Shown: positions 3,960 to 33,200 of the stretch, one piece after another
Position numbering within the stretch: the stretch's first letter is position 1
Layout: the number at the start of each line of letters is the position of its first letter
Assembly (NCBI GenBank): GCA_965242625.1
Contig: CBDEST010000005.1
Location: forward strand, 2,483,767-2,547,766
Direction of reading: 5' to 3'
Length of the DNA stretch: 64,000 nt
From: Bryobacterales bacterium
GTDB taxonomy: Bacteria > Acidobacteriota > Terriglobia > Bryobacterales > UBA6623
Made by a program: the position numbers and the translations under genes
The notes under the pieces: model-generated
The model's database searches: none
The model's input: the letters and a program-made list of their open reading frames with translations, nothing else
Told to the model about the DNA's origin: nothing

Positions 3960-3960
3960 C

Positions 3961-13788: not shown

Positions 13789-13913
13789 AATTGTTGACAG
13801 ACTGTTGGCAGCCGCCCGCGAGAGGGTCTATCATGAATTCGCCAATGCTCCAGCAGTCAGCTGGCAGGCCGACCGTCCAAGCAGATCACAACGAGAGGGC
13901 GGGGGAGCAGACA

Positions 13914-14168: not shown

Positions 14169-14392
14169 GTTGCCCGCGAGAACGCTCCCGCTCCCCTCCC
14201 CCGGTCACAAGGCCGACACGCCCGAGAGCGGACGGAATCGACCGGAAACGCGCCAAAACACGCGCCGACCTTCCCGTTTCAGCTAGGTTCCCAACATTTT
14301 TTCTGCCCTCGTTGCGAACTAGGATCTGACTTGTCCTTATTCCATATACACTTTCCCCGAAAGCAACTTTTAGGCCCGCTGTTCAGTCCAAG

Positions 14393-14807: not shown

Positions 14808-14862
14808 ATCCGACAATCCGACATTGCACACGACAAAGCCCTGCTGGTCTGGTACTATCCGA

Positions 14863-15363: not shown

Positions 15364-15937
15364 GAGCCTGTGGAGGTCGCCGACGGTAGCACCCCTCCGA
15401 ATGCGCGTCGAAGGCAACGCAAGCCGGATTCACCGGTGCCATCCACGCCCATTGGAGTAGGACTCATTCCAACCTTCCCGCCCCCTGTCGAAGGTCGCCG
15501 CCCGTTCCGCGCGTCCGTCGATTCGCAGAATTTGCGATACACACCGCGCGGGCGGGCGGGGCTCGAGCACTTGCCATTCCGACACTCGGGCGTCTCCGCT
15601 ACGTTCCGCGGACACCGCGGTCGCTCCAGGATTCGTATCGCCGGTGCCTCGCCTTCCCGCGAATCACGAATTCATTCCCATCGTTGTCGATTCCCGTCTC
15701 GACCTGCCGCCGGTAGACACTCCTCGGCAACGGAGAAGCCGGGGACCTTGCGCTGACCCGCGCGCGACCGGCTCACGGTCGATGTCGCGAGACCCGCCAG
15801 CTTGAGGCAGCGCCGAGCCCTGCGTCCAGCAACTCCCGCCGAAAGTCCCGCATGGATCGCCAGCACTCCCAAGTGTTCGTGGAAATCGCCATTGACCTGC
15901 CGCACGGATGCTCATCTCTCGTTGGAGAAGACTGGCC

Positions 15938-16372
15938 AAGCGCTACGCGGCCGTGGGCATGCGCGAATGCTGGCGGTTCGACATGACCGGCGAGTGCCTG
16001 AGCCCGCGCCTGCAAGGATTCCGCTTAGAACGCGGGGAATACGTGGCATTGCCCTCGGCTGAGGAAGGCGGAGAGTTGACGATCCGCAGTGAAGTCCTGG
16101 GCTTGGACTTCCGATGGCACAGCGAGCGACTCCAAGTGAAGGATCCCAGTACCGGCCGGGTGTACCAGAGTTTGGAGAACATGCGGGAACTGCAGGCACT
16201 GAAGGAAGCGGCGGAGCGCGGAGATCGTGAAGCTGCCGCGCGAGCGAGGAAGACTCGGCAGATGATCGCGGAAGTCATGGCGAAACGGGACGCGGTGCTT
16301 GGACCGGCTTCTGGGGACGGAGGAATCGCCGGAGGCGCGGCTGTGCCTGCTGAGAGCAGCGGAAGCGCTTGA
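15938..16372 (+). pseudogene. Uma2 type-B remnant (C-terminal half only)
   Basis: Homology to 2721..3689 starts at ...DWP-KR-YAAVGMRECWRFD. The solo IS-end-like motif at 15910-15935 lies immediately upstream. Confidence 0.6.
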
Positions 16373-16449
16373 CTGGGAATCGGAAGCTACGGCGAATGTA
16401 CTCGCGCTAGGTCGCAAGCCCGCAGGACACGCTCTCGAATTCCGACGAT

Positions 16450-17894
16450 CTAGGCATGTACTTGGCTACAGTAGACCGGAAAACACCACAACATGTTGAT
16501 TCTCGCAGTGGATTGGCACTCGCGGCGAGACACTGGTATCGTGAGCCGAACTAGAATGCTCCGGCGACGGCTGCGACCGCCCCGGAGCGTGGTAGCAATG
16601 GAGGCGCTACATGACACAGCTTTGCAACCGGACGCTGTTCACGGGCGACAACCTGCCCATCTTGCGCGGCATGAATAGCGATTCCGTAGACCTGATCTAT
16701 CTGGATCCTCCGTTCAACTCGAACGCGACCTACTCCGCTCCCGTGGGCAGCGCGGCCGCCGGAGCGGCATTCAAGGATTCGTGGACGCTGGATGATGTGG
16801 ACGCCGAATGGCACGGCCAGATCGCCGACGAGCATCCGGCCCTGTACAAGATCATCGACGGCGCGGGCGCGGCGCACTCAAAGGGGATGCAAGCCTATCT
16901 GATCATGATGGGCGTGCGGATGATCGAGATGGAGCGCATCTTGCGACCTACAGGCTCGATCTACCTGCATTGCGACCCGACCGCCGGGGCCTATCTCAAG
17001 ACGCTCATGGACGCCGTGTTCGGGCGCAAGCAGTTCCGCAACGAGGTCGTCTGGAGCTATCGCCGCTGGCCTGCCAAGCATCCCAACTTTCAGCGGATGC
17101 ACGACACCATCCTGCGGTATGCAGGCGAGGGAGCGACATGGAATCAGCAGTACGAACCGCTCGCGGACTCCACGCGCAAGACCTTTGGCACCAAGCGCCA
17201 AGTCGCCGATTTCTCGAGCGGGCACCGGAAGCCCAGCACTACAGCGAAAGAGTCACCCGGCGCACCTATGCGCGATGTCTGGAGCATCGGCGTCATTGCT
17301 CCAGTCGCGAAGGAGCGGTGCGGGTATCCAACCCAGAAGCCCCTATCGCTGTTGGAGCGCATCATCACGGCCAGTAGCAACGAGGGGGATTACGTCTTCG
17401 ACCCGTTCTGCGGCTGTGCCACCACGCTAGTCGCTGCGGAGAGACTGTCCAGAAAATGGGGGGGGGCCGACCTCTCCGACCTCGCGGTCAAGCTCGTCAA
17501 GCAGCGGATCAAGCGCGAGTTGGGCGGACTGCTCTTCGATGTCATCCATCGGACGGACATCCCCAAGCGCACGGATCAAGGGAAGCTGCCCCACTATCGC
17601 AGTCACGCCCATCGACTCTACGGCGAGCAGGAGGGGCACTGCAAGGCTTGCGGGACGCACTTCCCGTTCCGAGTCATGCATGTCGATCACATCGTGCCAA
17701 AGTCTCAGGGCGGCGGCGATGAATTCGCCAACCTCCAGATGCTGTGCTCCGGTTGCAATGCTCGCAAGGGCACCGGTACGCACGAGCAGCTGCTCGCTCA
17801 TCTGCGAGCGGACGGGATACTGCAAGCGTGAGTATCCATATGGACTTGGCGCGGAAACGAGCACGGTGTCTACTGCAGTTAGGTGCGTGCCTAG
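16450..17894 (+). mobile_element. 1,445-bp TIR-bounded insertion whose only ORF is the MTase-HNH fusion
   Basis: The left TIR is ctaggcatgtacttggctacagtagac (16450-76) and the right TIR is gtctactgcagttaggtgcgtgcctag (17868-94), matching at 21/27 positions. Flanking direct repeats are attccgacgat and attcctacgat. Paralogous spacers at ~1520 and ~3765 are uninterrupted. Confidence 0.65.
16611..17831 (+). CDS. Beta-class N6-adenine/N4-cytosine DNA methyltransferase fused to a C-terminal HNH endonuclease
   Basis: GGAGG lies 6 nt before ATG 16611. Motif IV is IYLDPPFNS near the N-terminus and motif I is VFDPFCGCATT later, which is beta-class order. The C-terminal HNH reads HVDHIVPKSQGGGDEFANLQMLCSGCNARKG. 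Confidence 0.85.
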   Translation: MTQLCNRTLFTGDNLPILRGMNSDSVDLIYLDPPFNSNATYSAPVGSAAAGAAFKDSWTLDDVDAEWHGQIADEHPALYKIIDGAGAAHSKGMQAYLIMMGVRMIEMERILRPTGSIYLHCDPTAGAYLKTLMDAVFGRKQFRNEVVWSYRRWPAKHPNFQRMHDTILRYAGEGATWNQQYEPLADSTRKTFGTKRQVADFSSGHRKPSTTAKESPGAPMRDVWSIGVIAPVAKERCGYPTQKPLSLLERIITASSNEGDYVFDPFCGCATTLVAAERLSRKWGGADLSDLAVKLVKQRIKRELGGLLFDVIHRTDIPKRTDQGKLPHYRSHAHRLYGEQEGHCKACGTHFPFRVMHVDHIVPKSQGGGDEFANLQMLCSGCNARKGTGTHEQLLAHLRADGILQA

Positions 17895-17931
17895 ATTCCT
17901 ACGATTCCCGATCACGCGGGTCGCTCGGTGA

Positions 17932-18100
17932 GTGCCGCACCCAACGCTCCTTGGATGGGTCCTCTATCCTCGCCGACGCCCAAGATCCCGCCATCGAGGT
18001 TGAGTACCCAGGTCCACGGCAAGCCGACAGGATCGTTGCGAGTGTCGCTGCTGGAGCGGCGCACCAACCCTCCCGCGAGGGAACTGTGAGATAGGCTCTC
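17932..18100 (-). pseudogene. Decayed copy of lipoprotein-gene 3' end (d segment)
   Basis: My minus-strand translation is SLSHSSLAGGLVRRSSSDTRNDPVGLPWTWVLNLDGGILGVGEDRGPIQGALGAA. Confidence 0.55.
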
Positions 18101-18116
18101 CGTTTCGAGGCCCCGA

Positions 18117-18371
18117 GTGGCGGACGGAAGGTACGTGCCGATACCCGGATGCGGCGAGTTCAGGGAGCAATCTATGCACAGCAGCAGGATCCCATGCGTA
18201 GACCTGTACTTCGAAGGCCAAGCATCGCGGCTCGCGCGTCGCCCGACAGCGGGGGACGTTGAGGGCGTTGGAGGAACTCGGGAACGAAGGAAAGACGAGA
18301 CAGGCGGAGTCAGGAGAGGATGCCTCGGTACGAGCAGACCGGTGATCCAGCGGTCGAGTCGTGGAGCCTAG
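18117..18371 (+). pseudogene. Uma2 type-A remnant (C-terminal part only, degraded)
   Basis: ADGRYVPIPGCGEFREQSMHSSRIPCVDLYFEGQASRLARRPTAGDV. This is a paralog of 12640..12876 within the segmental duplication. Confidence 0.55.
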
Positions 18372-18853
18372 AGCGGAATGTGGTCTATTGACGTTCGTTG
18401 GAGGAGGGAGCCTGACACCGGCCGATGCCACGCAACAGCCGAGGTTTCGAGAGGCAAGTGCCAATCCGGAGTAGGTGTGCGCCGTGGGTTGAAGGATTGG
18501 AGGGTGCGTGGCCAAACAGGGATGGTCGTCAGGCATGGATGGCGATCTTCAAAGCTCCGATTAGGGAGAGGGTCGGTGGTGGGATCGCGTACGCTCTCCA
18601 GAACGATTTGCCAGCGCCACTGCTGCTCGGAGGGATTGCTATACGCTGAGGGTGTGAGAACCGCCCAGAACAGGGTCGAGGATCAGGTCGTCCATGATGT
18701 CTCCGCTGGGGTTGTCAATGAGGTGATCTGCGGCGCGGACCCTAGGCTGAAGGTGAGTTGGCCGGGCGCACCTGCGGGTCCGCGGGGAATCCGCATGACC
18801 GCTGTCTCACATACTTGCTCCGACATTTCTCCGACACCGGATTTCGCCGCTCC

Positions 18854-19268
18854 TGTTAGCGCAAAGCTGAAATGTCCGGTTCTGGCAATTCTGAAATGTC
18901 CGCTTTTTCGAGGGAGCGGAGCGGCATGCCGGATCCAGTGCTACGACGTCCCGGGCCAAGCCCACCGGCTGCACGCAGCCGGTGGGCACTCTTCCGGCGA
19001 ACGTGCCGAGGTGCCTGGCGGGGCCGGGTACGCGTTGCGCGGCCGAGGCCTGCTGTTGAATGCCTGTTTGTCTTGTAGAACACTGGCTGGTTCGGCCGCA
19101 GCCAGCTTGAAGGCCGCTACTGCAGAAAGGAATACGGGGGTGCCTCCGTCCTCCGCCCCGCGAGGCTTCCCTTGGGCATGACGTGGCCCCGATGGAAGGG
19201 CCGACCGCAGCGGAAGGGACGGCTTGGAGGCCGCCCGGCGAACCGGACATTTAAGGATTGCTCCGACG
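18854..19268 (+). mobile_element. MITE-400, copy 4
   Basis: TIRs are tgttagcgcaaagctgaaatgtccg and cggacatttaaggattgctccgac. The hairpin spans 18961-18986. It sits at the same position in the duplicated unit as copy 2. Confidence 0.75.
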
Positions 19269-19393
19269 AGCTCCAACACACTTGACAACGGGCGATACGT
19301 TGTGGTATGGTTGGATCACTCGGGGCAGAATTCCGATGTCGGGCAAACGCCCGTGCCGACATCACGAAATCGGGCAGGAAGGAGGCGAGAGTT

Positions 19394-19735
19394 ATGACAG
19401 AATTCGAGAACTACTTGATCGAATCCGTCGATGCGGAAGATCGAGTGTCCATCAAGATCGGCTTGATTGCAGATCACGCTGGAGCAAGAACCTACTTGTC
19501 GAGGCTGGGCGTTAGTAATGCTCAGGAGCAGGTTGACTTGGTCGTTAAGACGGGTCAACCTCGTGGCGGAGCACTTATGCCTCCAGTCCAGATCGGGGGG
19601 ACGGCACCTGAAAGAGAGATAGATCCGTTAACGGGAGAAGTCTCCGAGAGGGTCGGTTCCACGCAGAGGGTGTCTTCTTCAGTTTCCAACGCTAGTAGTG
19701 CTCCGGTCAGAACTCAGGAGAAAGATTCGTTATGA
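19394..19735 (+). CDS. Hypothetical protein
   Basis: GGAGG lies 8 nt before ATG 19394. The stop overlaps the next start (ATGA). The DNA is AT-richer (one line counted at 50% GC). I recognised no family. Confidence 0.5.
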   Translation: MTEFENYLIESVDAEDRVSIKIGLIADHAGARTYLSRLGVSNAQEQVDLVVKTGQPRGGALMPPVQIGGTAPEREIDPLTGEVSERVGSTQRVSSSVSNASSAPVRTQEKDSL

Positions 19736-19986
19736 CGGATTTCCTAGAGTTCTTGGCTCCCGACCACTTCGAGCGAATGCTGTGGCTGATCATCTTTACG
19801 TCCTTCGCAGCTCTTCGGTATCACAGAATGATACGCGAAGAGCGTCGCAAGGATCGGTTGATGGATCTCTTTCTCAAACATTACGGTGACGACAAGTCGT
19901 GGCCTCCCGGCACGCACGAGAGCTTGCGGGTTATGTTGCAGAAGGATCCGACTACACTGGTCAACCTGCGGAAGTCGCCTGACTAA
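19732..19986 (+). CDS. Hypothetical small membrane protein
   Basis: It starts in an ATGA overlap with the upstream ORF. It has one hydrophobic helix (MLWLIIFTSFAAL). Confidence 0.45.
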   Translation: MTDFLEFLAPDHFERMLWLIIFTSFAALRYHRMIREERRKDRLMDLFLKHYGDDKSWPPGTHESLRVMLQKDPTTLVNLRKSPD

Positions 19987-20210
19987 CACACTGACCGGCC
20001 CGCCCCGAGCCGTGCTGCGACGCAGCGTAAATCGGGGCAACCGTTCGGAGAGACGACACTATCGCCCTACTTGATCGCACAATGTCTGGCAGTGACCCTG
20101 CGGCCTGAAGTCATCGGGGCATCAAGTGCGGGAAAGCCCAGGCCGCCCGGAGGATGCTGACGCAGATCCGCATTACATTGCAGTCCCGACCCCGGATCGC
20201 GCCCTGACCC

Positions 20211-20340
20211 TCTTAGGGCAAAGCTGAAATGTCCGCTTCGTCGAAGCAGCGAGGCACCGTGCCGGGCCCAGTGCCACAATGTCCCGGGCCCAGTCCACCA
20301 GCCGCAAGCAACCGGTGGGCACCGCTCCACCGATCACGCA
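20211..20340 (+). mobile_element. MITE-400, copy 5 (left ~130 bp only)
   Basis: tcttagggcaaagctgaaatgtccg... follows the MITE body up to ...cgatcacgc and then abuts the IS66 right-end fragment. Confidence 0.6.
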
Positions 20341-20349
20341 ACTGCGACT

Positions 20350-20578
20350 CGTCAGCGGCAACCACGCTGGCCATGGAGCGTTGCGCATGAACATCGAGCT
20401 TGGGGCTCGTCAAGGTGAGGAGGCCGTATCCGTGCAATTGAAATCAGGGCATCCGGGATGCCGGTGCTTGGTCGCGACGCCCTCGACCACATCCTGCCGA
20501 AACTTTCTCAACTAGCCAGACATCAGGTTACCTGAGCCTTCAGGATTGGCTGGGCGTCAGGGGTATCTGGGCAGTTAC
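20350..20578 (+). mobile_element. Solo right end (229 bp) of the IS66-family element
   Basis: It is collinear with 25120..25348 in the same orientation. Homology stops exactly at the TIR ...tcaggggtatctgggcagttac. Confidence 0.8.
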
Positions 20579-20739
20579 CAATCCGCAGTCGCAGAGTGGA
20601 GGGAAGGGGCGCCGGCCGACGATGGAGGGAGCACGGATTCCGGCGTCCAGCACCATCCCGCCCGTGCCTCTCACTCCACTCCGACCGCGCTTCCGCGCCT
20701 CCTCAGCAAACCCGGCGCACGGATTTCCCGCACCGGCCC

Positions 20740-21573
20740 CTAGGCAGTTACCCCCTTGACTGCTTTCTGTTCCCTGAGTCGATAGAGCCCTCGCAGCAGT
20801 AAGACGAGGGCCCGATCAAGGTACGGTGTGTCGGCGAGGTACCGATTCTCTTCCTCGGTCAATCCATTATTCAGGTCCGCCGCCCCGTAGCCCTCGAATT
20901 GGCACTTACCTTCCCATGCGGGCTCGGAGCGCGCGAATGGTGTGACAAGGCCGAGCGTGGCGGCGATGTCGTGAGCGCAGCCCCCGAAACTGCCCACGAG
21001 AAACAGCGCCTGGCGCGCCGAGAGGCTGCACAACGCCTCTTCCGCGATGCCCGGCATGATGCCCTTGTAGCCCTTCACCCTCCCGCCCAGGAGAATCCGG
21101 CAGTCCGTCGCCTCGCGCATCACCCGGCGCATGGCCGTGAGACCTTCGGCCCACTGGTCGTCAGTCGGTTCCGAGCGGCTGGCGACACCGCGATCTAGCA
21201 TTGACACGGCACTGCCGTCTATGCCGAGAAGGGCGAGCCTGCCCACCCCGGACAACTCCTTGGCAGTCTCCTGCAGATCCTGGAACGGGGTCCGTATGTG
21301 GACGGGCCACGCCAAGTAGTTGACGATTCGGATCTCGTCGGGATCTTCGCCGCGAGCGTACCGCTGGGCGAGTTGGAATAGCAGCCTCGTGAAGCCGTAT
21401 TTCCTCAGGTCGCCGCCGTAAGCGAGATCCGCGCCCTGAGCGAGCATGAACGTCGCCAGATCGGCGATCGCATCCTTCAGGTGTCGCTCGCGCAGACCGA
21501 GGGCCGCCATGTCGGGGCTCTCCGAAACAGAAATCGCGACAACTTCCGGACGATCGGGACTCCGGACTGTCAT
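20740..21573 (-). CDS. Stand-alone SLOG/LOG-like Rossmannoid nucleotide-binding protein (tentative)
   Basis: ATG 21573 overlaps the upstream stop (ATGA). Motifs are VVAISVSES, GADLAYGGDLRKYGFT and ILLGGRVKGYKGIMPGIAEEA ... LVGSFGG. No SIR2, TM, Macro or nuclease domain is visible. Confidence 0.5.
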   Translation of the reverse strand: MTVRSPDRPEVVAISVSESPDMAALGLRERHLKDAIADLATFMLAQGADLAYGGDLRKYGFTRLLFQLAQRYARGEDPDEIRIVNYLAWPVHIRTPFQDLQETAKELSGVGRLALLGIDGSAVSMLDRGVASRSEPTDDQWAEGLTAMRRVMREATDCRILLGGRVKGYKGIMPGIAEEALCSLSARQALFLVGSFGGCAHDIAATLGLVTPFARSEPAWEGKCQFEGYGAADLNNGLTEEENRYLADTPYLDRALVLLLRGLYRLREQKAVKGVTA

Positions 21574-22748
21574 GATGGTTGACCCCCTTCCCATTCGCTG
21601 AATGCATGTAACGCGACGTCACTTCGAACTGCGCCGAACAACTTTACCTCGTCCCCCAGCATAGGTGGATCCGGATACACGATCTCCGTCCAGTCCCGCT
21701 CGCCCCGCAGGCTCCGTATCGAGAGCGAAGCCAGTTCCGGTGCGCGGGAAAGAAATAGCGTTCCAGGGTTGTCCTCCTGCAGTTCTTTCGTACGACATAG
21801 CCATAGATAGTGGAGCATTGTTTCGTCAAGAAGGCACCTGATAACGCTTGCGATACAGCCCGTGTCGGATGGATCCATGCGGATCGCGGGCACGTTTCCG
21901 AGATATGGAAACGCTCGTTCGTCTTTAGATCTCACGCAATCGACGACGACCATGGGCACACAATTCTGCTTGGCTTGAAGCACTTCGCGACAGCACCACT
22001 CACGCGAGGAGTAAGTGTCCGTGCGGATCGCCAGCAAGACACTATTCGGAATGGAATCCAAAATGACCTGTTCGAACGAGGAGCCGGGAGCAACGTCTGC
22101 GGTGTCCATGAAGCTTGCGAGAGCGGCATCCTCGTGGATCCAATTGCGAATCCGATTCGCAATGAACTCTCCATATTCGTCACGCTTTGAATGGCTCAAG
22201 AACACTTTGACCTTCTGGCGAGCGGCATCCCGCTGCCCCCTGTCCTCACGGTCACTCGATTTTGCATACCGCTGCCTGAGCATGCGAATGAATGCATGAA
22301 CCAAGTCGCGGACGAGCTTTTCCCTGTGCATGTCGCACTCAAGACGCCATCTATCCCACCTGATCCCTTGCACCCCAAGCCCACCCACGGGCAGGGAGCC
22401 ATCGATCAAGACAGGAAACACGCCGGCGCCGGGCGAACGCCGCGCCGCGCTCTGCTCGAGCTCTTTGAGATATCTGACCGCTCGGGAGTCTTGCACCAAG
22501 TCGCGGTTGAGGAAGACGACTACGGCCGTGGTGTCCGCTCGCTCCCAGTCCACAGGCCCGGGACCGCTCCCCTCGCTGGACAGGGCGCGATACGAGATCT
22601 GAACACGGGCCCCGGCCGTGACATTACGGAACCGGTCTGCATCGAACTGCTCGTGCAGCCAGCCTGCGAGTGCCTCGCCTTCGCTGTATCGCGCGTGCCA
22701 GACGAGATGGAGCGCGAAAGTCGACTTCGTATGGCTCGTCATGCCCAT
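21570..22748 (-). CDS. TIR-domain protein (C-terminal TIR; N-terminal ~170-aa TIR-like alpha/beta region)
   Basis: The C-terminal half reads KVFLSHSKRDEYGEFIANRIRNWI ... VLLAIRTDTYSSREWCCREVLQA. This gives the beta-A FLSHS-x-D motif and the alpha-C S-x-WC-x-x-E motif with the Glu retained. Confidence 0.7.
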   Translation of the reverse strand: MGMTSHTKSTFALHLVWHARYSEGEALAGWLHEQFDADRFRNVTAGARVQISYRALSSEGSGPGPVDWERADTTAVVVFLNRDLVQDSRAVRYLKELEQSAARRSPGAGVFPVLIDGSLPVGGLGVQGIRWDRWRLECDMHREKLVRDLVHAFIRMLRQRYAKSSDREDRGQRDAARQKVKVFLSHSKRDEYGEFIANRIRNWIHEDAALASFMDTADVAPGSSFEQVILDSIPNSVLLAIRTDTYSSREWCCREVLQAKQNCVPMVVVDCVRSKDERAFPYLGNVPAIRMDPSDTGCIASVIRCLLDETMLHYLWLCRTKELQEDNPGTLFLSRAPELASLSIRSLRGERDWTEIVYPDPPMLGDEVKLFGAVRSDVALHAFSEWEGGQPS

Positions 22749-22829
22749 GGCCCTCGGTCTACGCTATTCGATCCCAACCTGCAGGTTCCCGCGAATCCGG
22801 GCACGGTCGGAGCGAAGCGACCCTCACGC

Positions 22830-23396
22830 CTACACAAGCCGCGTGGACCATAGTGCCTTAATCCAACTGTCCAATGCAGCTTGGTTGTGCAAACCCTTCA
22901 GAGCACCGACCACGGCTGGCAAGGGGGGCGCAGGTGCCCCGGCGTTGTACATGATCCGAGCTCGGGGCTTGTCGAGCACATGCGCTCCGCCAACCTCGTA
23001 GCCGATCCACATGGAATCCGCGATCCGAGCAATCACGTGAACCAAGAAACCCCGGCTCACGCGGATTGCCTGCATGATGTGGTCCGGCAAGGCAGGGGAA
23101 CCTGGATCCGTGATCGTGCCGTCCCATTCGGCCATGTACACCGCTACTTTGTGCATGGAAGAAATGTACCTTGCCACGCGCTCCGCGGCTGAGTCGCCCG
23201 TCTTGTGCGACATGAACACCAGCTTCTGGAGCGTCTCAATGTGCGCGGGCGTGAAATTGAGTCTCCGCAGGGAGTCCGCTGTGTCATCACGCAGGAGCGC
23301 TCGTACTGCCCGCTCCGCATCATCGCGTCCGACGATGTCGGAACTTACGTGCTCGCCGAGAACGATCCTCTTGAATTTGATAGCAATGGACTGCAT
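22830..23396 (-). CDS. TIR-like (ThsB-like / DUF1863-type) protein
   Basis: AGGAGG lies 9 nt before ATG 23396. Motifs are KLVFMSHKTGDSAAERVARYI ... VAVYMAEWD ... ADSMWIGYEVGGAHVLDKP. Confidence 0.55.
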   Translation of the reverse strand: MQSIAIKFKRIVLGEHVSSDIVGRDDAERAVRALLRDDTADSLRRLNFTPAHIETLQKLVFMSHKTGDSAAERVARYISSMHKVAVYMAEWDGTITDPGSPALPDHIMQAIRVSRGFLVHVIARIADSMWIGYEVGGAHVLDKPRARIMYNAGAPAPPLPAVVGALKGLHNQAALDSWIKALWSTRLV

Positions 23397-23436
23397 GCGA
23401 CAGACCTCCTGAGCCGCTTCTCAGTGTAGCAGACGT

Positions 23437-25348
23437 GTAACTGCCCAGATACCCTGATCGGGCTTGGTTGCAGCGATGGGTAGCGGGCATGGCTGGCGGA
23501 TGTCGTACTAGGTGCGGCTCGGAGCGGAGCGGGGGTGCTGTCGAGGAGGTAGTTGACAGGGGCGTGCAAGCACATGTAACGTAGGAATTGTTCTGAGGGC
23601 GCGGGCACTCGGGCAAGTCATGGCGGCAGCGTTCCCAACGGCGGAGCAACAGCCGGGGGCGGCAGGTGGGCTTGAACAGCTCCAACAGCGGCAAGCCGCC
23701 CTCCAGCGACGGGCTGCGCAAGCCGCGGCGCAGCCAGAGCACCCGGGGCGGTTCCGGCAAGCCTTCGGGCGGCCAGCCCGGCCATCCGGGCACGACGCTG
23801 AAGCAAACCGCCGACCCGGATCACATCGAGACGCACCGGCCGGCGCACTGTGCCGGCTGCGGCGCGCCGCTGACGGCGGCCGACAGCGTGAGCTACGCGC
23901 GGCGGCAAGTGTTCGACTTGCCGCCGCCGCGCGTCGAAGTCACCGAGCACCAAGCGTACCCCTGCCAGTGCCCAGCCTGCGGGCACCGGACGCGGGCGGA
24001 ATTCCCCGACAGCGTACGCGTCCCGGTGCAATACGGCCCGCGGATCCAGGCCATGGCGGTGTACCTGCAGAACTGGCACTTGCTGCCCGAGGATCGCCTG
24101 GCGGAGCTGTTCCGGGACCTGCACGGCGTCGGCATCAGCGCGGGGACGCTGGCGAACATCACGCGCCAGGCGGCGGATGGCTGGCGGGCGTGCAGCGAGC
24201 GGATCCGGGATCTGCTGGTGGCCGCGGACGGCCCGAAGCACTTGGACGAGACGGGTTTCCGGATCACGGCGTGCGGGCAGTGGCTGCACGTGGTCTGCAC
24301 GCGGTGGCTGACGTTCTACCGCACGAGCGAGCGGCGCGGCAGCCTGCTGGCCGGCTTGCGCGGCTGCTTGGCGCACGATCACTGGAAGCTGTATTTCACG
24401 GTGCCGGACGTGCAGCACGCGCTGTGCAACGCGCATCACCTGCGCGAGTTGGAAGTGCTGGCGGAGATCGACGGGGAGGCGTGGGCGCGCCCCATGCAGG
24501 ACTTGCTGCGGATGGCGAGCCGCGCGGCGGGGATCGCGACCGAGGAGGGCTGGACCCTGCCGCCGGATCTGGTGGGATGGTTCGAGCAGCGCTACGACCG
24601 CTTGGTGGCGGGGGCGCTGGAGTACCACGAGGGGCTGGAGCCGTTGCGCCCGGCGGGCAAGGGCCGGAAGGGACGCCCGAAGCGGTGCCCGGGGCACAAT
24701 CTGGCGTTGCGGTTCCGGGACTTCAAGACGGAGACGCTGCGCTTCCTGCACGAGCCCGGGGTGCCGTTCACGAACAACCAAGCGGAGCGGGACCTGCGCA
24801 TGATGAAGCTGCGCATGAAGATCTCGGGCGCGTTCCGCTCGGCGCAGGGTGCCGCGGATTTCGCCACGTTGCGCGGCGTGCTGTCGACCGCGCGGAAGCA
24901 AGGTCGGAACCGCATCGAGGCGCTCATGCAAGGTCCGGCCGTGCTGCTCGAAGGCCTGCGCTGCTAGCGCGCGCCCGGCACCCGCCCCGCTGGTCCGGCC
25001 CCGCCGGTACCGGGCGGCGGTGCGCCCCGCCGCCGGATGGGAGGCGAGGATGTCTTGCGCTAGTCCGCCCCCAAGCATGCGGGGCGGCCGTTGGGCGAAG
25101 TGCTGCGAGACGGGTCTGTCGTCAGCGGCAGCCACGCTGGCCATGGAGCGTTGCGGATGAACATTGAGCCCGGGGCCCGTCAAGGTGAGGGGGCCGTATC
25201 CGTGCAATTGAATTCAGGGCATCCAGGATGCCGGTGCTTGGTCGCGACGCCCTCGACCACATCCTGCCATAACTTTCTCGACTAGCCAGACATCAGGTTG
25301 CCTGAGCCTTCAGGATTGGCTGGGCGTCAGGGGTATCTGGGCAGTTAC
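23437..25348 (+). mobile_element. IS66-family insertion sequence (single tnpC-type ORF)
   Basis: TIRs GTAACTGCCCAGATACCCTGA and its imperfect inverse lie at the ends. A GTAA start is typical of IS66. The flanking 8-mers differ (gcagacgt vs taacattc). Confidence 0.85.
23666..24967 (+). CDS. tnpC: IS66-family transposase TnpC; start/N-terminus uncertain
   Basis: Motifs are LNSSNSGKPPSSDG, the zinc-finger-like CAGCGAPL...CQCPACG, HLDETGFRI, LCNAHHLRE and FTNNQAERDLRMMKLRMKISG. The track start is GTG, and no leucine-zipper N-terminus is seen. Confidence 0.85.
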   Translation: MGLNSSNSGKPPSSDGLRKPRRSQSTRGGSGKPSGGQPGHPGTTLKQTADPDHIETHRPAHCAGCGAPLTAADSVSYARRQVFDLPPPRVEVTEHQAYPCQCPACGHRTRAEFPDSVRVPVQYGPRIQAMAVYLQNWHLLPEDRLAELFRDLHGVGISAGTLANITRQAADGWRACSERIRDLLVAADGPKHLDETGFRITACGQWLHVVCTRWLTFYRTSERRGSLLAGLRGCLAHDHWKLYFTVPDVQHALCNAHHLRELEVLAEIDGEAWARPMQDLLRMASRAAGIATEEGWTLPPDLVGWFEQRYDRLVAGALEYHEGLEPLRPAGKGRKGRPKRCPGHNLALRFRDFKTETLRFLHEPGVPFTNNQAERDLRMMKLRMKISGAFRSAQGAADFATLRGVLSTARKQGRNRIEALMQGPAVLLEGLRC

Positions 25349-25410
25349 TAACATTCTTAATTGGCTAGGGGGCATGTGCTCTGTGTCAAGCGGCAGACGC
25401 TCGCTAGGCG

Positions 25411-26394
25411 TCACTCTGAGGGTGGGGCGGACACGTGAGTCTCTCCGACGCTAACGCTTAAGACGAACCCCATCAACGACCGCACCTTCACGACAACACC
25501 ATCATACGGCCCGTCGTACCATCCGAGAAAGCCATCCTCACGCCACTGTCTACTATCGTCAGCGTCTCTAAATAGACTTCTCATCCTAACGTGCTGACCT
25601 ATAAATAGAGACCTACGAACCTCACGTCTATCACGCAAGGATACGCCCGTAACTATAAGATAAAAGTGTGCTACCCTGCTAGACTTACGTTCCTCAATCG
25701 TGGCTGTAGGAAATCTGCCCCCGTCAAAAAACTTGCGCTGATAGGCATGTCCATCATATAGCAAATCCTGTAGAGCGTCCCCGTACATCAGTCCGCCGGA
25801 CATGTTAGACCGTAAGAATAGATTGTCACCAATTTGTAGTATCTGCACGTATGTCCGTTGAATTTTATCAATACATCCATATTCCCCTGAGTCGTCTATC
25901 CACTCCTTATCGCCAGTCGTGTTGAAATCATCTATTGCTTCAAATATCATCTGAATCCATATGCAGACAATCCACCTAAGTCGGTATATTTCACACATGA
26001 TAAACATACGCATAGATCGTCGCGTCAGACACCCTCGGTGCTTATTCCTGCCACCAGCTATCCAACTTGTTATGACGTTAGACACCGCTTGAAGTGGTTT
26101 TATTCGATATCGGCGCGCATCGTCATTTAGTGACCAAGAAATATTTTCATCATAGCTAGTGTGTCGGGCTACGAACTCACTTAGCCATGCATACCCCCTA
26201 GACATAGCCCATTGCCCGACGATCAGATTCCATAGAATTAGCACGGCAGATAGATTGACACTACCGCATAGAACTGCATATAGCGACACACAGATTGTCA
26301 TTAGGGCCACGACAGCCCCGACACTATCGCGCCTGCTGGCCTTGATGGAGTAATGCTTCCTAGCATTTAGTTGCCAATGTGTATTCTGTCTCAT
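25411..26394 (-). CDS. Orphan membrane protein in strongly AT-rich DNA
   Basis: ATG 26394 (MRQNTHW) is the likely start. Predicted TM helices are VGAVVALMTICVSLYAVLCG, LSAVLILWNLIVGQWA and IYRLRWIVCIWIQMIF. Hand GC counts are 40-52% against 68% in the adjacent IS. I recognised no family. Confidence 0.5.
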   Translation of the reverse strand: MRQNTHWQLNARKHYSIKASRRDSVGAVVALMTICVSLYAVLCGSVNLSAVLILWNLIVGQWAMSRGYAWLSEFVARHTSYDENISWSLNDDARRYRIKPLQAVSNVITSWIAGGRNKHRGCLTRRSMRMFIMCEIYRLRWIVCIWIQMIFEAIDDFNTTGDKEWIDDSGEYGCIDKIQRTYVQILQIGDNLFLRSNMSGGLMYGDALQDLLYDGHAYQRKFFDGGRFPTATIEERKSSRVAHFYLIVTGVSLRDRREVRRSLFIGQHVRMRSLFRDADDSRQWREDGFLGWYDGPYDGVVVKVRSLMGFVLSVSVGETHVSAPPSE

Positions 26395-26423
26395 CCTAAT
26401 CACCGCCCCGCATCCAATGGGTG

Positions 26424-26525
26424 TTATATACCAATCGATGCGTCCAGATTGTAGATCGTCTGGACGGGTTGCGCCGGAGCGGCGATGCCGCACACCAGCA
26501 CGGCGATGATGAGCAAGATAGTCAT
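26424..26525 (-). CDS. 33-codon hydrophobic peptide ORF
   Basis: GGAGG lies 7 nt before ATG 26525. The peptide is MTILLIIAVLVCGIAAPAQPVQTIYNLDASIGI*. It ends 29 nt before the 26394 start. Confidence 0.4.
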   Translation of the reverse strand: MTILLIIAVLVCGIAAPAQPVQTIYNLDASIGI

Positions 26526-27165
26526 GTAGCACCTCCTACATGCTGCCATGCGCCGGGGCGGTTGCGGCCGTCGCCGACGCGACTTCGATTCGGAATCATG
26601 ATACCAGCGTCGCGGCACGGGTGTCAAGATCGGAAAAATCCATTATGGCACAAGGGCTTGGCTACTTTGGTATATGATTCCTGTTGAGAACCACGTGCGG
26701 TCGAGCGATACATCTCGCGATCAAATCAATTTGACCCATGAACAGCGACAAGCGACTTGCACGATGAGTCGTGAACTGCTGGGGTATTCGCTTCGTGAGC
26801 GTGAAGTGCTCGGCAATCGAGATCGGTTCGAGCTCACGGTACGGTTCTCCTCAATCAGCGATTGCGACCGCAGCATCGTGCTCGCCGAGGTCTCACAATG
26901 GAAGGTTTGCGTCCCATGAGAGACACCGCATTCTCGCCCACCGCCGAGCAGCGTTGGATCCTTGCCCGAATCAACCCTGACTCGCCCCGCGACATCAGTT
27001 CCCGCGCGGATGTCCTTTGGGGCTATGGTGTCCTCTATCGCAAGCACGGGGTCCGCAAGCCGTCCACCGCATACAGGGATGGCGAACCGGTCCATCGCAA
27101 TCACCCGCTCGCCTTGACTTGCTGGATATGGGCGAACCTCGACCCGCACTGGGCACCGTCCACTA

Positions 27166-27272
27166 GTGTCCTGTCTCGCAAGCCCCTAACCAGTAGATGC
27201 GGCGTGTGGCACCTTCGGCCGTAAGTCGAATCACTCAAGAATTACTGTGCAGGGATTTCTGAGACAGGACAC
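27166..27272. mobile_element. 107-bp MITE, copy 2
   Basis: It has the same 12-nt TIRs and body as 1359..1465. It is flanked by TA (27164-65, 27273-74) inside cacTA...TAgc, i.e. a CTAG target. Confidence 0.75.
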
Positions 27273-27407
27273 TAGCACCGCCCCGCGAGACGAGAACGTT
27301 GAGTGGCTGCGAGACCGCGATTGGGCGGACGAGTCGATCTTCGACAAGCGTCCTCGACGCAAGTCCATGGCCGCAGACGAGCAAGGAACGCTGGAGTCTG
27401 GCTAGCC

Positions 27408-27950: not shown

Positions 27951-28115
27951 TAGCTACCCGCTCTCGATTTACTCCCGCGGCGACTGGCCTGCACCGGAAC
28001 TCTGGCCAGAGGGCAAGGTCGGAAGCCCAAGCCCCGTGCCGGACACCAACCCAGCCCGACTCAAGAACGCTCCGTACTTCCCCATCGAACCATTGGAGAC
28101 ATGCGAGGAACCGCC

Positions 28116-29333
28116 ATGACCATTGCCGAGATGCTGGATCGGGAGGATGTCCTGATCTTCGATACCGAGACCACGGGGTTCGCCAAGTGGTCCGAGATCG
28201 TCGAGATTTCGATCATCGACACACGGGGCGATGTGCGACTCAACACTGTTGTCATGCCCCGTGGCACCGTGCTGGAGGACGTGGTCAAGGTCCACGGCCT
28301 CACCAAGGAGCGGCTAGCCGAGATGGACGCCCCGCAGTGGACAGACGTATTCAAGAAAGTCCAAGCGGTCCTCGGAGGCGCGCAAGTACTCGCCGCGTAC
28401 AACTTCGCCTTTGACCGGCGGATGATCGAGCAGACCAATCAGAAGCACCGCACCGGATTCGATCCGTACATCAAGATGCCGTCGAACTGCTGCATCCTGC
28501 GCGAGTACAAGCGGTTTGTCCGCCTCGGCCTGACCGACCTCGAACTTCCTTCATCCAATAATCTGTCCGAAGCCTACACCGCTCTAACCGGCGAGGAACC
28601 TTCGGATGAGCACCGAGCACTCCCCGATTGTCTGGCGACGCTCGCGGTCATGCGCGTCATGGCAAGGCACTACCGCGAAGCTGGTTGCTCGCGGACTGTC
28701 GAACTTTCCACCGCTCCCCGCTACACACCGCCGACGTCGAGGCGAGCGGAAGGCAAGCAGTTCGCCATCACCGGCAAGTTCGCCAAAATGTCTCGATCCG
28801 TACTGGTAGGTTTGATCCAGAGCGGCGGCGGCAGTGTCACTCAATCTGTCAGCCCACGCACTGATTACTTGGTTCGTGGCAACAGCCCCGGCAAGACCAA
28901 GACGAGGGGCGCGAACGAGCACGATGTAAGAGTCATCGGCATTGCCGAGGTACTGAAGATGCTTGGTTCCCATGAGGTCAAGACTGATACCGTGCATGAT
29001 GAACCGGTGCCGGTGGGCACGGTCAGAGAAAACGTAAAGCGTCCGCCGATCAATCCGGCCAACTTCAGAGGGTATGAGCAACCGGAGTGCCGCGGTACTG
29101 CGCTTGCAGGCAAGCGGCTCGCCATAACTGGAGTGTTTGCGGAGTTCTCCCGCCGCGAAGTCCAGACATTGATCTCAGACCATGGCGGAGAGGTGACGAA
29201 CCACATAAGTCGCAAGACTGATTACTTGGTCGCTGGAGAGCGGGCTGGATCCAAGCTCGCCAAGGCCGGGAAGGCGGGCACTTCTGTCATCACCATCCAC
29301 CAGCTCCTGAATATGATCCAGCCCCACGAATAG
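28116..29333 (+). CDS. DEDDh 3'-5' exonuclease (DnaQ/epsilon-like) fused to two BRCT domains
   Basis: Exo I is LIFDTETTG, Exo II is AAYNFAFDRRM and Exo III is HRALPDCLATL. Two LigA-type BRCT repeats follow (GKQFAITGKF...TDYLVRG; GKRLAITGVF...TDYLVAGERAGSKLAKA). GAGGAA lies 6 nt before ATG 28116. Confidence 0.8.
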   Translation: MTIAEMLDREDVLIFDTETTGFAKWSEIVEISIIDTRGDVRLNTVVMPRGTVLEDVVKVHGLTKERLAEMDAPQWTDVFKKVQAVLGGAQVLAAYNFAFDRRMIEQTNQKHRTGFDPYIKMPSNCCILREYKRFVRLGLTDLELPSSNNLSEAYTALTGEEPSDEHRALPDCLATLAVMRVMARHYREAGCSRTVELSTAPRYTPPTSRRAEGKQFAITGKFAKMSRSVLVGLIQSGGGSVTQSVSPRTDYLVRGNSPGKTKTRGANEHDVRVIGIAEVLKMLGSHEVKTDTVHDEPVPVGTVRENVKRPPINPANFRGYEQPECRGTALAGKRLAITGVFAEFSRREVQTLISDHGGEVTNHISRKTDYLVAGERAGSKLAKAGKAGTSVITIHQLLNMIQPHE

Positions 29334-29357
29334 GATCGCAACGACACTGCGATTGCG

Positions 29358-29550
29358 TGTTAGCCCAAGGCTTAAGCGTCCGGTGCTGGCAGTCCCTTGT
29401 TGTCCGCCTTTTCGGAGCAGCGGAGCAGCATGCTGGACCCAATGCCACAAAGCCCTGGGCCAAGCCCATGGGCTGCAAGGAGTCGGTGGGAACATCTATG
29501 GCGATCACGCGGCTGCGACGGGCGGGGCTAGGGCGTTGTGCGGCCGTCGC
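29358..29550 (+). mobile_element. MITE-400, copy 6 (degenerate left half)
   Basis: tgttagcccaaggcttaagcgtccgg... follows the MITE body, including a degraded hairpin, as far as ...gtgcggccg. Confidence 0.55.
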
Positions 29551-30211
29551 CTGCACCCGTGCGTGTAGATCCGGGTGGCTCTGGTCCCCGACCTCCGATG
29601 TCTTCCTCAGGTACAACGCGGACTCGATGGAAGGCCACCAGAGGCGGTTGGGCATGTCTTGCAGCACACCCTCCCGAGGGTCTGTAAGCACCTCGTTCCC
29701 GCATCCCATCCCTCGGCTGCGCTGCAGGCTCGTTGTCGGACTGGAATGCACTCGGAGCTGACACTGTTGCAACAGGCTTCTATGGGCCGGGAGGGTGCGT
29801 GGCCAAACCGGGATAGGCGTCAGGCGCGGGTATGAGGGCGGTGTCATCCACGCCACGCCCGCCCCGGCCGATTACGCGGATCCCGATGTGCGCGAATTCC
29901 GAGAATCGGATGCAAGCTCGCACTAGCAAGCCTGTCTGGACGATCCGCGAAGCTCGGTTGGGAACTGTCCGAGATCCTGCAGGTCGAAGGCTGTCAGTCG
30001 CTGGAACACGCATGCGACCGAAGCGTCCCGCGCAGGTCCATGGAACGGTCGGAGATGGTCCTGCGATGCGTGTCAACCGCGCTTGCGACGCGGTAGACAC
30101 GCTGGCATGGGACGCGGCTTCGCTGCGACCGCCGGACGAACACAGAGCCCGACCGACTCGTTCTGGACTGCGGGCGGCTGGGATAGACTCTCGACTTCCG
30201 GCAATTTACAT

Positions 30212-30240
30212 GCGGGCGGCACTCTCCGAGTGCCGCCCGC
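30212..30240 (-). terminator. Stem-loop just downstream of the giant lipoprotein gene
   Basis: A perfect 13-bp stem gcgggcggcactc-tcc-gagtgccgcccgc begins 30 nt after the 30270 stop. There is no clear U-tract. Confidence 0.45.
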
Positions 30241-30269
30241 CGCTGGAACCCGATGCATGCGCGATGCAG

Positions 30270-33200
30270 CTAGGGAGCCAGTTCCGCTCCGAATGCTCCC
30301 TGGATGGGGCCTCTCTCCTCGCCGACGCCGAAGAGTTCGCTGAAGACGTTGAGTTGCCACGTCCCCAGCATGCCGATAGGACCGCTGGGAGTGTTGCCGA
30401 TAAACCGGCCTGACAGCTCGCCCGTGAGGTCGCTGTGACTTACAGACGAAGGCGGGGTTGGATTGCTGGTGATAGTCCAGAATTCCTCCGAGCCATCGAG
30501 ATAGAGGAAGGATAGCTCGCCGCCCCCGTAGTTGTTCATGGCGACAGGGACTTCCAAGTTCAACTGCGCTCTGTGCAGGCGCGCCAAGTTCCCCTCCGGG
30601 CTTGCCGGAGCCGAGATCAGCGGAACGTCCGCGTAGAGTTCGACGTCGTTGAGTTCGGCTACGTCGAATCCACTGAAACGGGGAGCCCAAGTGACGACTA
30701 GATCCTCCGCCCCGTCTTCAGCTGGCTTGAAGAAAAATCTCCCGTTCGAGGCATTATACGAGCGTTGAAGGGGGCTAGCTCCCCCTTGCACCAACCGGCC
30801 GTCCACCGTGTCCAGTTCCACCGACACGTCGTCGAGGTCGCTGCTGAACCCGAGAACGCTGCGATCGTCGCCGTAATTGGCGATCTCTCCCGCGAAAGTC
30901 ACCGACTTGACTTCCGGCAGCACGGCCGAATTGACCAAGTCCGCCCGCCCGAACTGCAGCGCGCCGAACGCCGGGTTGGTCGAGCGGAGATCGCTGACCT
31001 TGACGCGCACTTGGCCGCCAACCTCGGCCGCGTTCCACTCCACCCGCGCTTCGACGCTGCCCCTGTAGAACTGGTTGTTCTGGGCCGCCACCGTGCTGCC
31101 CACGTAGCGGGCTAGCACGTTGGTGGAGCCGCTCGCCGGGTATTGCGGCTGATCCGCGGCTTCATAGGCTCGCGTCGGAGCCACTGGACTGTACGCGAAC
31201 GCCCCGATCCCGCCGAAGGGTCGGGAATCCGGGTCGGAGCTATCGATCAATCCGGCGCCCGCGAACGGGGACTCCTGCTTGCGCCAAGCCCCGAAACGGG
31301 TGAAGTCGGTCTTGCCGGTCTGGAGCAAGAGCCTCGATTTGGGTCGGCTGTAGATAGCGCTGAGCGACGCGCTCGCGACCACCGGATTCGTGCTCTGGCC
31401 CGCGAAGACACCGCCGCTGTCGAACGCCGCCTCGAACGCTTCCATGTTTTCCAGCGCCGCGACGATGTCGTCGATTTCCGCCAGCACCTCCCTGTCCTGC
31501 GGGTCGTTGCTGGAGTTGACGGGGTAGTTGAGCCAGGCGGTCCACTTGCCCTCGATAGCCTGCGGTGTCTCGACCGCGCCGCTGTCCGGCGTCAGGACGC
31601 CGGTGTTGAACCCGGGGACCACCACCGGTCCGGCACCGGGCGTAGTTACCCCGTCTTCAACGCGGGCAGCACGAATCTCCGGGATATCCGGGCCGAAGAT
31701 CTTGCGCATCTCCGCTTGGATCGCCGAGAAGACTTCCTGCCGTCGGTCGTTCGCGAACGTGGCGTCGACATCGCCCAGATTGATCAGCTGCTGGAGCCGG
31801 GCCCGCTGCTTGATGACCTCCGCCCGGACCTCGCTCACGTGCGTGGCCTTGATCACCTCCTGCTGCGCGGCTAGGGCCACCTCGTCGGTCGAGGTGACGG
31901 GATACTCGAGTGCGAAGAGCTTGGCCCGGTCCAGTTCGAACACGGTCTGGGCATCGAAATTCACGAACCCGTCGCGCGTCCGGATCCGGACTTCGCCGAC
32001 ATCCGCGTCCGGGCCGACATCACCCCCTGGTGTGGTTATGACTATAGGTCTTGTCGTGTCTCGAACGGAAACCGGCACTAAAGCGTTAATGCCCTCGGCT
32101 GTTCCTCGACCTACATTAGGATTGGGACACGTACCGGCACCGCCGGGACACGCGAACGAGTCCACGGCGCCCTCGATTCCGTATGTCGACCAAGGGATCC
32201 ATCTAACCCGATAGCCCAATTGCGTCGTGGTTGTTTCGGGCAGCGTGAGTTCCACCTCGTACTGCTCCACGGCGCTCCCGCCCAGGCTGTCCGACGAAAT
32301 CTCGAGCTTCGTGTCGCCCGGCTTGATTTCCGGGGGCGCGCTGCTGTCGGTGAGCCACACGCTGGCGGGGTTCGCCGCCGACCCGCCCACCTTGCTCAGG
32401 TCATTTTTCAGAGCCGCGTTCGGGTCGAGCCGTTCGACGCGTTCCACGCCGAACCCGCCGGCCAGGATCTCCTCGTCCACGGCCAGTCGCCACGTGCCGA
32501 TCGCCTCGGTTCCTGCCTCGTCGCCCCGGCCCAGCAGCCGGCCCGAGAAGCGCCCGCCTTCGAAGACGGTGTCCGTTCTGCTCCCGACCCCCGGCATGTA
32601 GGAGATGCGCCCCTCGCCGGTGCCGGTCCGGACTCGCCACGAGCCGCGCCTCTCCAGCGAGGCCCTCGGAAGCACGAAGTGGGACACGTCGCCGCCCAAG
32701 CCGAAGCTCCACGCCTCGCCCGTGTTCGAGTCGGCGAGCCCCCGCACCAAGCCGTCCACGTCTCGCGCTGCGAAGTTCACCGTGATTTCCATCGTGCCTT
32801 GGTAGAGGGTGCCCTCCTGGTCCGCGGCGTGCGTGACGCCCGCGTAGTACCCGTTGCCCGCGGTCTGGACGTCGCTCGCCCGCATGGTCGGCTCCATCGT
32901 CGACCACGCGAATCCCTGCGCCCTGTCCGCGCCTCCGGGGCCCGCGGCCGCGTGATCCGTCTCGTTGTACACCGCCGCCCCGAACCGCGTCGAGCCCAGG
33001 ACTCCCAGCGTGCTCGTAGCGGTCCACTTCACGCGGTTGAACGCGGCTTTCGCCTGCGCTTCCGTGCGCTCCGGGAATCCCAGCAAGCGGTCGGGTCCGT
33101 TCTCTTTCGTCGCCGCCACCAAGGCTTCTTCGGTGCTCAGCGCTGCGATGACCCCGTCGAACGCCTCCAGCACGCGGTTCTGGGACACGATGCGCTCGAG

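Follow-up and report, generated by a model that had tools for sequence, protein, structure and literature searches.

The DNA studied here, called the window in what follows, is a stretch of 64,000 nucleotides from a Bryobacterales bacterium (GenBank assembly GCA_965242625.1, contig CBDEST010000005.1, positions 2,483,767 to 2,547,766), in which positions are counted from the first letter. Our subject is a cassette of three genes, two for TIR-domain proteins and one for a SLOG-domain protein, together with what lies on its two sides: on the left, the solo end of an insertion sequence (IS) of the IS66 family; on the right, a defective copy of such an element, followed by a low-GC gene for a predicted membrane protein. 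The neighbourhood is a repeat-rich defence island that contains Uma2 nucleases, a methyltransferase-HNH (MTase-HNH) gene, a DEDDh-BRCT exonuclease, TerB, BrxC-D and helicase genes, segmental repeats, and elements resembling miniature inverted-repeat transposable elements (MITEs). The DUF1501/PSCyt/PSD1 proteins suit a Planctomycetota-like or a Bryobacterales-like genome, although their best named matches reach only ~70% identity. A preliminary description, made from the letters of the window, had proposed several readings of this layout, and we examine them where the evidence bears on them.

The IS66-family element on the right of the cassette (23437..25348, plus strand) is 1912 bp long, and both of its ends are intact. 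The termini form a perfect inverted repeat of 18 nucleotides, GTAACTGCCCAGATACCC, which begins with GTAA and reaches 21 matches out of 22 when extended with one gap; the preliminary description was right about the GTAA start, and its repeat length of 21 nucleotides is replaced by these values. The window contains three occurrences of this 18-mer, where 0.04 would be expected, and the same ends are present in two full-length relatives, labeled L008 and L023. The transposase matches PF03050 (DDE_Tnp_IS66, E=4.5e-34) and PF13005 (zf-IS66, E=1.4e-8), and scores 274 bits with the NCBIfam model NF033517 (transpos_IS66), whose equivalog cut-off is 180. The element has the TnpC-like DDE transposase and the terminal inverted repeats starting with GTAA that define the IS66 family, and it lacks the 8-bp target-site duplication of that family, an absence that bears on the history of this copy and not on its membership.

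Canonical IS66 elements have three open reading frames (ORFs), including the accessory genes tnpA and tnpB. These are not found here: the full-length relatives measure 2088 bp (L008) and 2090 bp (L023), their transposases have 499 to 506 amino acids, and an element of 2.09 kb with one ORF of 506 amino acids, such as L008, has no space for tnpA and tnpB. A full-length copy with one ORF indicates a single-ORF subgroup of IS66, which we take to be the one called ISBst12-like. The window copy resembles these elements in its DDE_Tnp_IS66 and zf-IS66 transposase, which exceeds the equivalog cut-off, and in its terminal repeats starting with GTAA, and one full-length relative, L008, has a duplication of 8 to 9 bp, GAATTCTC; the window copy differs in being internally deleted, frameshifted and without duplication.

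The preliminary description had called the element complete: its coordinates and ends are confirmed, but the adjective must be dropped. With respect to the full-length copies, 161 bp are missing, the gap being at about 23656..23666. This deletion takes out the N-terminal DUF6444 coiled coil of the transposase and shifts the frame: the original start codon, ATG at 23620, no longer lies in frame, and the residual ORF of 433 amino acids (23666..24967, plus strand) starts with GTG. Compared with nine paralogues of the same genome, the transposase has 18 private residues, which extend up to column 476 of the 506 columns of the alignment. The element is neither intact nor autonomous: it is an old, non-autonomous copy. 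Its GC content is 69.6%, against an average of 63.9% in the window, and the plasmid collection contained no close relative of it.

The history of this copy can be read from its flanks. The octamers just outside its ends, gcagacgt and taacattc, are unlike, as had already been pointed out, and the two flanks have no word of five or more nucleotides in common within 30 nucleotides of either end, at any offset, so that moving the boundaries does not restore a duplication. According to the preliminary description, the idea of a rearrangement would fall if matching 8-bp duplications emerged once the boundaries were corrected: none appears, and the idea stands.

Two metagenome contigs carry the cassette without the IS: L001, 98.3% identical to the window over 23438..20615, and L002, 97.2% identical. 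Followed from the SLOG side, the homology of both contigs with the window breaks at 23438, which is exactly the terminus of the IS. On the gene strand, L001 reads cgcttgac, ACGTCTGC, tacgctgag...ATG, an empty site that is the same in L002, and the window reads gggcagttac, ACGTCTGC, tacactgag...ATG. The insertion point of the IS is ACGTCTGC, and 40 bp separate it from the first TIR gene downstream. This target octamer (23429..23436), which is GCAGACGT when read on the opposite strand to the genes, lies beside the left end of the IS, and the right end has no second copy of it.

In L001 and L002, the ancestral DNA upstream of the insertion point consists of a MITE-like repeat followed by gacaagcgcttgac, and not of the low-GC gene. 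After a simple insertion, the flank past the right end of the IS is predicted to be GCAGACGTgtcaagcgc; the flank found in the window is taacattcttaattgg. Hence the DNA now on the right of the IS is not the DNA that was there originally, which was replaced in a second event associated with the IS. The view, already put forward in the preliminary description, that the IS marks a rearrangement gains support from this difference between the upstream DNA of L001 and L002 and what now adjoins the IS.

The left side of the cassette has a different history. The solo right end of a second, diverged IS66-family copy (20349..20578, plus strand) is 230 bp long, its left part of about 1.86 kb being deleted. 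It is 94.3% identical to 25119..25348, in the same orientation, with a homology that stops at the terminal GTTAC, and 89% identical to L023; a solo right end of 229 bp in this orientation, with homology ending at the terminal repeat, had been announced, and it is one base pair longer. Adjoining it is a shortened copy of a MITE-like repeat (20186..20345, plus strand), which corresponds to the first 160 or so nucleotides of an element of about 415 bp when aligned with the copies at 18855-19268, 13380-13790, 14393-14806 and 7614-7965. The solo end and the MITE fragment lie within about 4 nucleotides of each other and both are cut internally: their joint marks a deletion in which the remainder of the MITE, 1.86 kb from the left of the IS and anything between them were lost. 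The insertion point of this second copy is 161 bp downstream of the SLOG gene.

Directly oriented IS remnants on either side of a cargo-like cassette recall the composite transposons of the Tn10 and Tn5 type, and the preliminary description had recognised such a layout: the cassette would have moved between two directly oriented IS66 copies, the left one being mostly lost later. The cassette does occur in varied contexts, and is thus mobile in some way. However, L001 and L002, which are 97-98% identical to the cassette, are uninterrupted at the site of the right IS, so the right IS arrived after the cassette. Moreover, the two copies are only 94% identical over their common 230 bp, a divergence of 6%, and the left copy keeps its inner 230 bp only, its outer end being lost, where a composite transposon needs two usable outer ends. 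Finally, another relative, L005 (84% identical), shares only 23410..20740 with the window, that is, from 14 nucleotides upstream of the first ATG as far as the stop codon of the SLOG gene; its flanks differ, and what it shares is the genes without IS-bounded flanks. The composite transposon is, on this evidence, very improbable.

We now turn to the genes themselves, all of which are on the minus strand. The first gene of the cassette (22830..23396) encodes a divergent TIR-like protein of 188 amino acids, which scores 22.7 bits with the TIR_2 model, under its cut-off of 28, and matches the ThsB model weakly, with E=8.9e-6. It is followed by the gene of a TIR-domain protein of 392 amino acids (21570..22748; TIR_2, E=1.3e-9; ThsB model, a weak match with E=1.1e-3), and by that of a SLOG cluster2 protein of 284 amino acids (20740..21594; PF18163, E=2.5e-67). 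The last two genes overlap and form a conserved core; the small TIR protein differs in family and in position between relatives, and the 188-amino-acid protein is not homologous to the small TIR proteins of two of them, L019 and L006. The SLOG2 family counts 1253 members at E<=1e-5; no PADLOC or NCBIfam model matches the SLOG protein, and neither PF18163 nor the name "SLOG cluster2" appears in the literature searched.

An Alcaligenes relative has the same gene order, a small ThsB-type TIR, the 392-amino-acid TIR and SLOG2, as cargo of a Tn7-like element beside TniB and TniQ genes; its larger TIR protein is 38% identical to that of the window over the full length, and its SLOG protein 55%. In L006 and L007 the order is TIR-SLOG-TIR, and L021 and L022 are decayed versions of the cassette. 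None of the six other contexts of the cassette contains a membrane gene or a gene similar to that on the right of the IS. By these comparisons, the cassette is a self-contained unit of three genes.

The closest known architecture is that of the Thoeris systems. A type I system pairs a ThsB TIR protein with ThsA, a SIR2-SLOG protein. Type III is described as a combination of several TIR proteins and a SLOG effector of uncharacterised signalling (bioRxiv 10.64898/2025.12.03.692087). The cassette likewise has TIR proteins beside a SLOG-domain protein in a defence island, and its small TIR protein varies beside a conserved core as thsB genes do. It differs in that its SLOG protein is a stand-alone PF18163 domain (residues 18-227), without SIR2, Macro or membrane domain, and the ThsA effector of type I, in which a SIR2 or membrane domain is fused to SLOG, is not found. 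With type III the cassette shares several TIR proteins and a SLOG protein in one operon, a likeness of architecture only: its best match with the NCBIfam equivalogs of that type, ThcB4, is 32.4 bits against a cut-off of 220. The 392-amino-acid TIR protein may itself be the effector that consumes nicotinamide adenine dinucleotide.

On the other side of the IS, the low-GC gene (25411..26394) encodes a protein of 327 amino acids, P0001. Its GC content is 47.2%, falling to 41.7% in windows of 300 nucleotides, so the low GC content first noticed on the right of the IS is real for this gene; at third codon positions the GC content (GC3) is 47%, against 67-76% in the genes of the cassette. Hydropathy gives a single N-terminal hairpin, at residues 23-60: of the two to three hydrophobic helices of the preliminary description, the hairpin remains and a third helix does not. 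A word-indexed search of 5.8 billion proteins returned only P0001 itself, and a HMMER scan of 1.84 billion representatives yielded one relative, P0140, 42% identical over the full length. Both proteins keep the hydrophobic hairpin and a C-terminal block, VVVKVRSL..LSVSVGE. The gene is real but very rare: the two proteins match nothing in Pfam, NCBIfam, PADLOC, PHROGs or the PDB, where the lone match (E=0.19) is noise, and the family has no match in the JGI metagenomes or viral contigs. Exact look-ups of P0001, and of the SLOG protein, gave no recorded contig. An AlphaFold2 model of P0001, built on the alignment of the two sequences, has a predicted local distance difference test (pLDDT) value of 34 and is unusable.

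The relative P0140 is found in the contigs L003 and L004, where its start codon overlaps the end of an N6_N4-MTase-HNH gene (TGATG), to which it is translationally coupled. Its island contains a MmeI/Eco57I-like enzyme, of the restriction-modification type, and no TIR or SLOG gene. In L003 (3..7314, an ENA metagenome scaffold) the order is the MmeI/Eco57I-like enzyme (>1180 amino acids), an ORF of 159 amino acids, MTase-HNH, P0140, and ORFs of 145 and 207 amino acids; neither Pfam nor PHROGs gives a match for the unnamed ORFs, and no convincing inverted ends surround the MTase-HNH/P0140 pair. The GC content of P0140 in L003 is 45-48%, against about 60%. A low-GC gene can therefore be coupled to a high-GC neighbour, and GC content alone is weak evidence for a separate origin; low GC is characteristic of the gene family. 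Another low-GC stretch (44-50%) is seen inside the gene of the large enzyme of the L003 island.

Upstream of the low-GC gene lies a segment of about 105 nucleotides, promoter and 5' leader (26521..26627, minus strand), that is common with MTase-HNH genes: 26627..26521 is 78% identical to the 105 or so nucleotides that precede the MTase-HNH gene of the window (16513..16615, plus strand), and a third copy, 43750..43627 on the minus strand, keeps 16 MTase codons. A near-consensus sigma-70-like promoter, TTGACA-18-TGgTATCAT, is predicted at 26627..26598 (11 of 12 positions), and the leader block terminates in GGAGGyGCTACATGAC. Folding the shared leader gives z-scores from -0.96 to +0.87, with no sign of structure; Rfam has no match in the window or in 25300..27300, and no tRNA gene was detected. 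As judged from these signals, the low-GC gene appears to have its own promoter, independent of the cassette.

Between this leader and the low-GC gene is a hydrophobic ORF of 33 codons (26424..26525, minus strand), which uses the GGAGG-N6-ATG of the leader. The preliminary description had placed it in the AT-rich DNA, as one of a pair of genes. This does not hold: with 55% GC and a GC3 of 74% it is compositionally unlike the low-GC gene, its start comes from the shared leader, and it is not conserved, having no counterpart in L003 or L004. It is probably a stub or a leader ORF, and not a dedicated gene. We also considered the ORF as a remnant of an MTase-HNH gene, a candidate that was rejected: local alignments are no better than those of shuffled sequences, and the resemblance in frame 0 (HDYLAHHRRAG vs HEQLLAHLRADG) is too short to count.

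The MTase-HNH gene of the window (16611..17831) and its leader form a discrete insertion of 1445 bp, 16450..17894. It has imperfect inverted ends of 27 nucleotides, CTAGGCATGTACTTGGCTACAGTAGAC vs CTAGGCACGCACCTAACTGCAGTAGAC, identical at 21 of 27 positions, and a direct duplication of 10-11 bp, ATTCCGACGAT / ATTCCTACGAT; paralogous empty sites exist near 3745..3775 and 1510..1535, and shortened copies at 12239..12421 and 43750..43620. It codes for no transposase, and a matching autonomous IS was not found within the window. This element looks like a mobile insertion cassette, presumably comparable to those of the MIC231 type in its inverted ends, its duplication, its empty sites and its lack of a transposase; the low-GC locus differs in having the interior leader only, and not the ends.

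It is tempting to conjecture that the low-GC membrane protein is a partner of this mobile MTase-HNH module, for instance the membrane effector or immunity component of a cassette akin to restriction-modification. The locus might then be an orphaned remnant, in which the MTase would have been deleted from its start codon to its 3' end, leaving promoter, leader and a stub of 33 codons. We hold this conjecture to be unlikely. Transcription from the promoter of the leader may also continue across the inactive IS as far as the TIR/SLOG cassette, since the stretch from the low-GC stop codon to the IS has no terminator-like site; such read-through, if it occurs, would be a by-product.

The same observations bear on the idea of a split operon, in which a membrane-effector/TIR/TIR/SLOG operon would have begun with the low-GC membrane gene and the small ORF, before a simple insertion of the IS split it. 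The genes are on the same strand, and removing the IS would leave 62+40 = 102 bp from the low-GC stop codon to the first TIR ATG, in agreement with the figure of about 100 bp initially estimated; the interval between this stop codon and the IS lacks, as just said, a terminator-like site, and membrane effectors are present in some TIR signalling systems (bioRxiv 10.64898/2025.12.03.692087). However, a simple insertion is contradicted by the missing target duplication, and L001 and L002, free of the IS, have other DNA where the idea demands contiguity. The homologue P0140 lives in an MTase-HNH and MmeI-like island devoid of TIR and SLOG genes, none of the six cassette contexts includes a membrane gene, the low-GC gene has its own promoter-like site (26627..26598) and leader, and its GC3 of 47% is far from the 67-76% of the cassette genes. 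There is thus next to no chance that the operon existed.

The proposal, made in the preliminary description, that the membrane protein is the missing effector of the cassette falls for the same reasons: P0140 has neither TIR nor SLOG genes around it, the low-GC gene of the window has a promoter and leader of its own, and none of the six contexts has a membrane gene. The co-occurrence of homologues of the membrane protein with TIR/SLOG genes, which was to be checked, is seen neither in the P0140 contexts nor in those of the cassette. The same description had cautioned against a single original operon, a caution that our results support, even though its argument from GC content is weak when taken alone. 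The low-GC gene is another module, and its position beside the cassette is accidental.

What remains is the explanation that we favour, to which we give a probability of roughly 0.72: the layout is not a functional unit; a multi-copy IS66-family element has scarred a repeat-rich defence island of the chromosome. The first step, shown by the comparison with the empty sites, was the insertion of an IS copy at ACGTCTGC, a site that lies 40 bp upstream of the cassette's first gene, where it displaced the native upstream DNA. The DNA past its right end was then exchanged, so that an unrelated module now adjoins the IS: the result is visible in the window, and the mechanism could be either homologous recombination with another copy of the IS, with direct copies giving a deletion and inverted copies an inversion, or a one-step, intramolecular, IS-mediated adjacent deletion. 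Such an exchange would account for the missing second copy of the 8-bp target. The IS then decayed, as its 161-bp frameshifting deletion and 18 private amino-acid changes show. Separately, a second, diverged copy had inserted 161 bp downstream of the SLOG gene, and all but its last 230 bp was lost in a deletion that extends into a MITE-like repeat.

The source chromosome (6.73 Mb) offers partners for such exchanges, with at least 10 paralogous copies of the window transposase. These paralogues are mosaic: 56 of 91 informative pairs of sites fail the four-gamete test, which makes an IS-mediated exchange plausible as far as this pattern can tell. The locus resembles known IS-mediated chromosomal rearrangements in that only one of its two flanks agrees with the empty site of relatives, and in its many mosaic paralogous copies; it differs in that the reciprocal products are not seen here. 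These products would be the right end of the IS followed by GCAGACGT+gtcaagcgc (GCAGACGTgtcaagcgcttgtcgg), and the left end of the IS preceded by the partner of TAACATTC. Since neither was found in the collections searched, which do not contain the source genome, deletion, inversion and one-step intramolecular transposition cannot be separated.

Several points weigh against this explanation. The collections searched for the reciprocal junctions, without success, exclude the source genome: a scan for GTAACTGCCCAGATACCC in a 596-Gb contig collection of this kind gave 10 single matches, in taxa unrelated to one another, roughly what chance alone would produce. An IS-free version of each junction had been proposed as a check in the preliminary description. 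One was found, the inner right junction, empty in L001 and L002; none was found for the right junction, for which an exact-pattern search of the JGI metagenomes and viral contigs gave no match, or for the solo-end junction, 37 bp short of which L001 ends. The rule of the duplication rests on a single copy, L008, with an offset of 2 nucleotides, and two of the three full copies examined are without one: L023, a full-length copy from the same metagenome as L001, has unlike flanks and no duplication, with its left end within a MITE terminus.

Lastly, an assembly mis-join across the repeated IS would give the same picture: the genome has many near-identical copies of a multi-copy family, and a collapse of two of them into one would yield an IS with mismatched flanks. 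Against such an artefact, the record is one contig of 6.73 Mb, and the private 161-bp deletion near the left end, with the 18 private residues, marks most of the copy, so that only its last 400 or so base pairs could hide a mis-join; the independent metagenome copy L023 is likewise without duplication. We judge an artefact to be very improbable.

For annotation, the consequence of the IS66 scarring is that the membrane gene should not be described as an effector of the TIR/SLOG system, and that the cassette should be regarded as three genes that form a unit of their own, the 392-amino-acid TIR protein and SLOG2 being its conserved core. There is nothing new in kind here: the element is a defective new member of a known IS family, and its trace is a textbook IS scar. 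Yet the locus is a clean case of a multi-copy IS reshuffling a defence island, and one that can be dated, since a relative with 98% identity has the site empty. Reshuffling of this sort creates misleading gene neighbourhoods, and is relevant to the discovery of defence systems through guilt by association. Two side findings are worth retaining: the MTase-HNH cassette without a transposase, and the two-member protein family tied to MTase-HNH.

The rest of the island yields some further observations. The MITE-like family of about 415 bp, whose terminal inverted repeats are built on GCAAAGCTGAAATGTCCGG, is represented in the window by the copies 18855..19268, 13380..13790, 14393..14806 and 7614..7965, and by the fragments 20186..20345 and 29357..29554. 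Outside the window, copies are seen in L001 (51..313), L005 (8828..8882) and L023 (31..55), and they adjoin the cassette upstream in L001 and downstream in L005. The location of the IS66 copy L023 in a MITE terminus may reflect a target preference or the mere abundance of MITEs. A second small repeat family is an element of 113 bp present twice, at 27163..27275 and 1356..1468, with 96% identity; it is a hairpin whose arms of 33 nucleotides are 79% complementary.

The left third of the window, 1..20350, together with 29357..30430, is a patchwork of segmental repeats with 75-96% identity, such as 12239..13756 with 17725..19261, and 249..1358 with 2606..3706, where Uma2-family genes are included; the area as a whole is an island in the course of duplication and decay. 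At 19307..19986 (plus strand), flanked by a MITE and the MITE fragment, two ORFs of 142 and 84 amino acids overlap by ATGA, with a GC content of 53.5% and no match in the family libraries. Farther to the right, 28101..29333 encodes a DEDDh exonuclease fused to two BRCT domains, which matches the candidate defence model PDC-S48 with E=4e-27, and another defence-like cluster, at 52584..58408, has a TerB-N/TerB-C protein, a BrxC/D-like ATPase and a DEAD-box helicase in a row.

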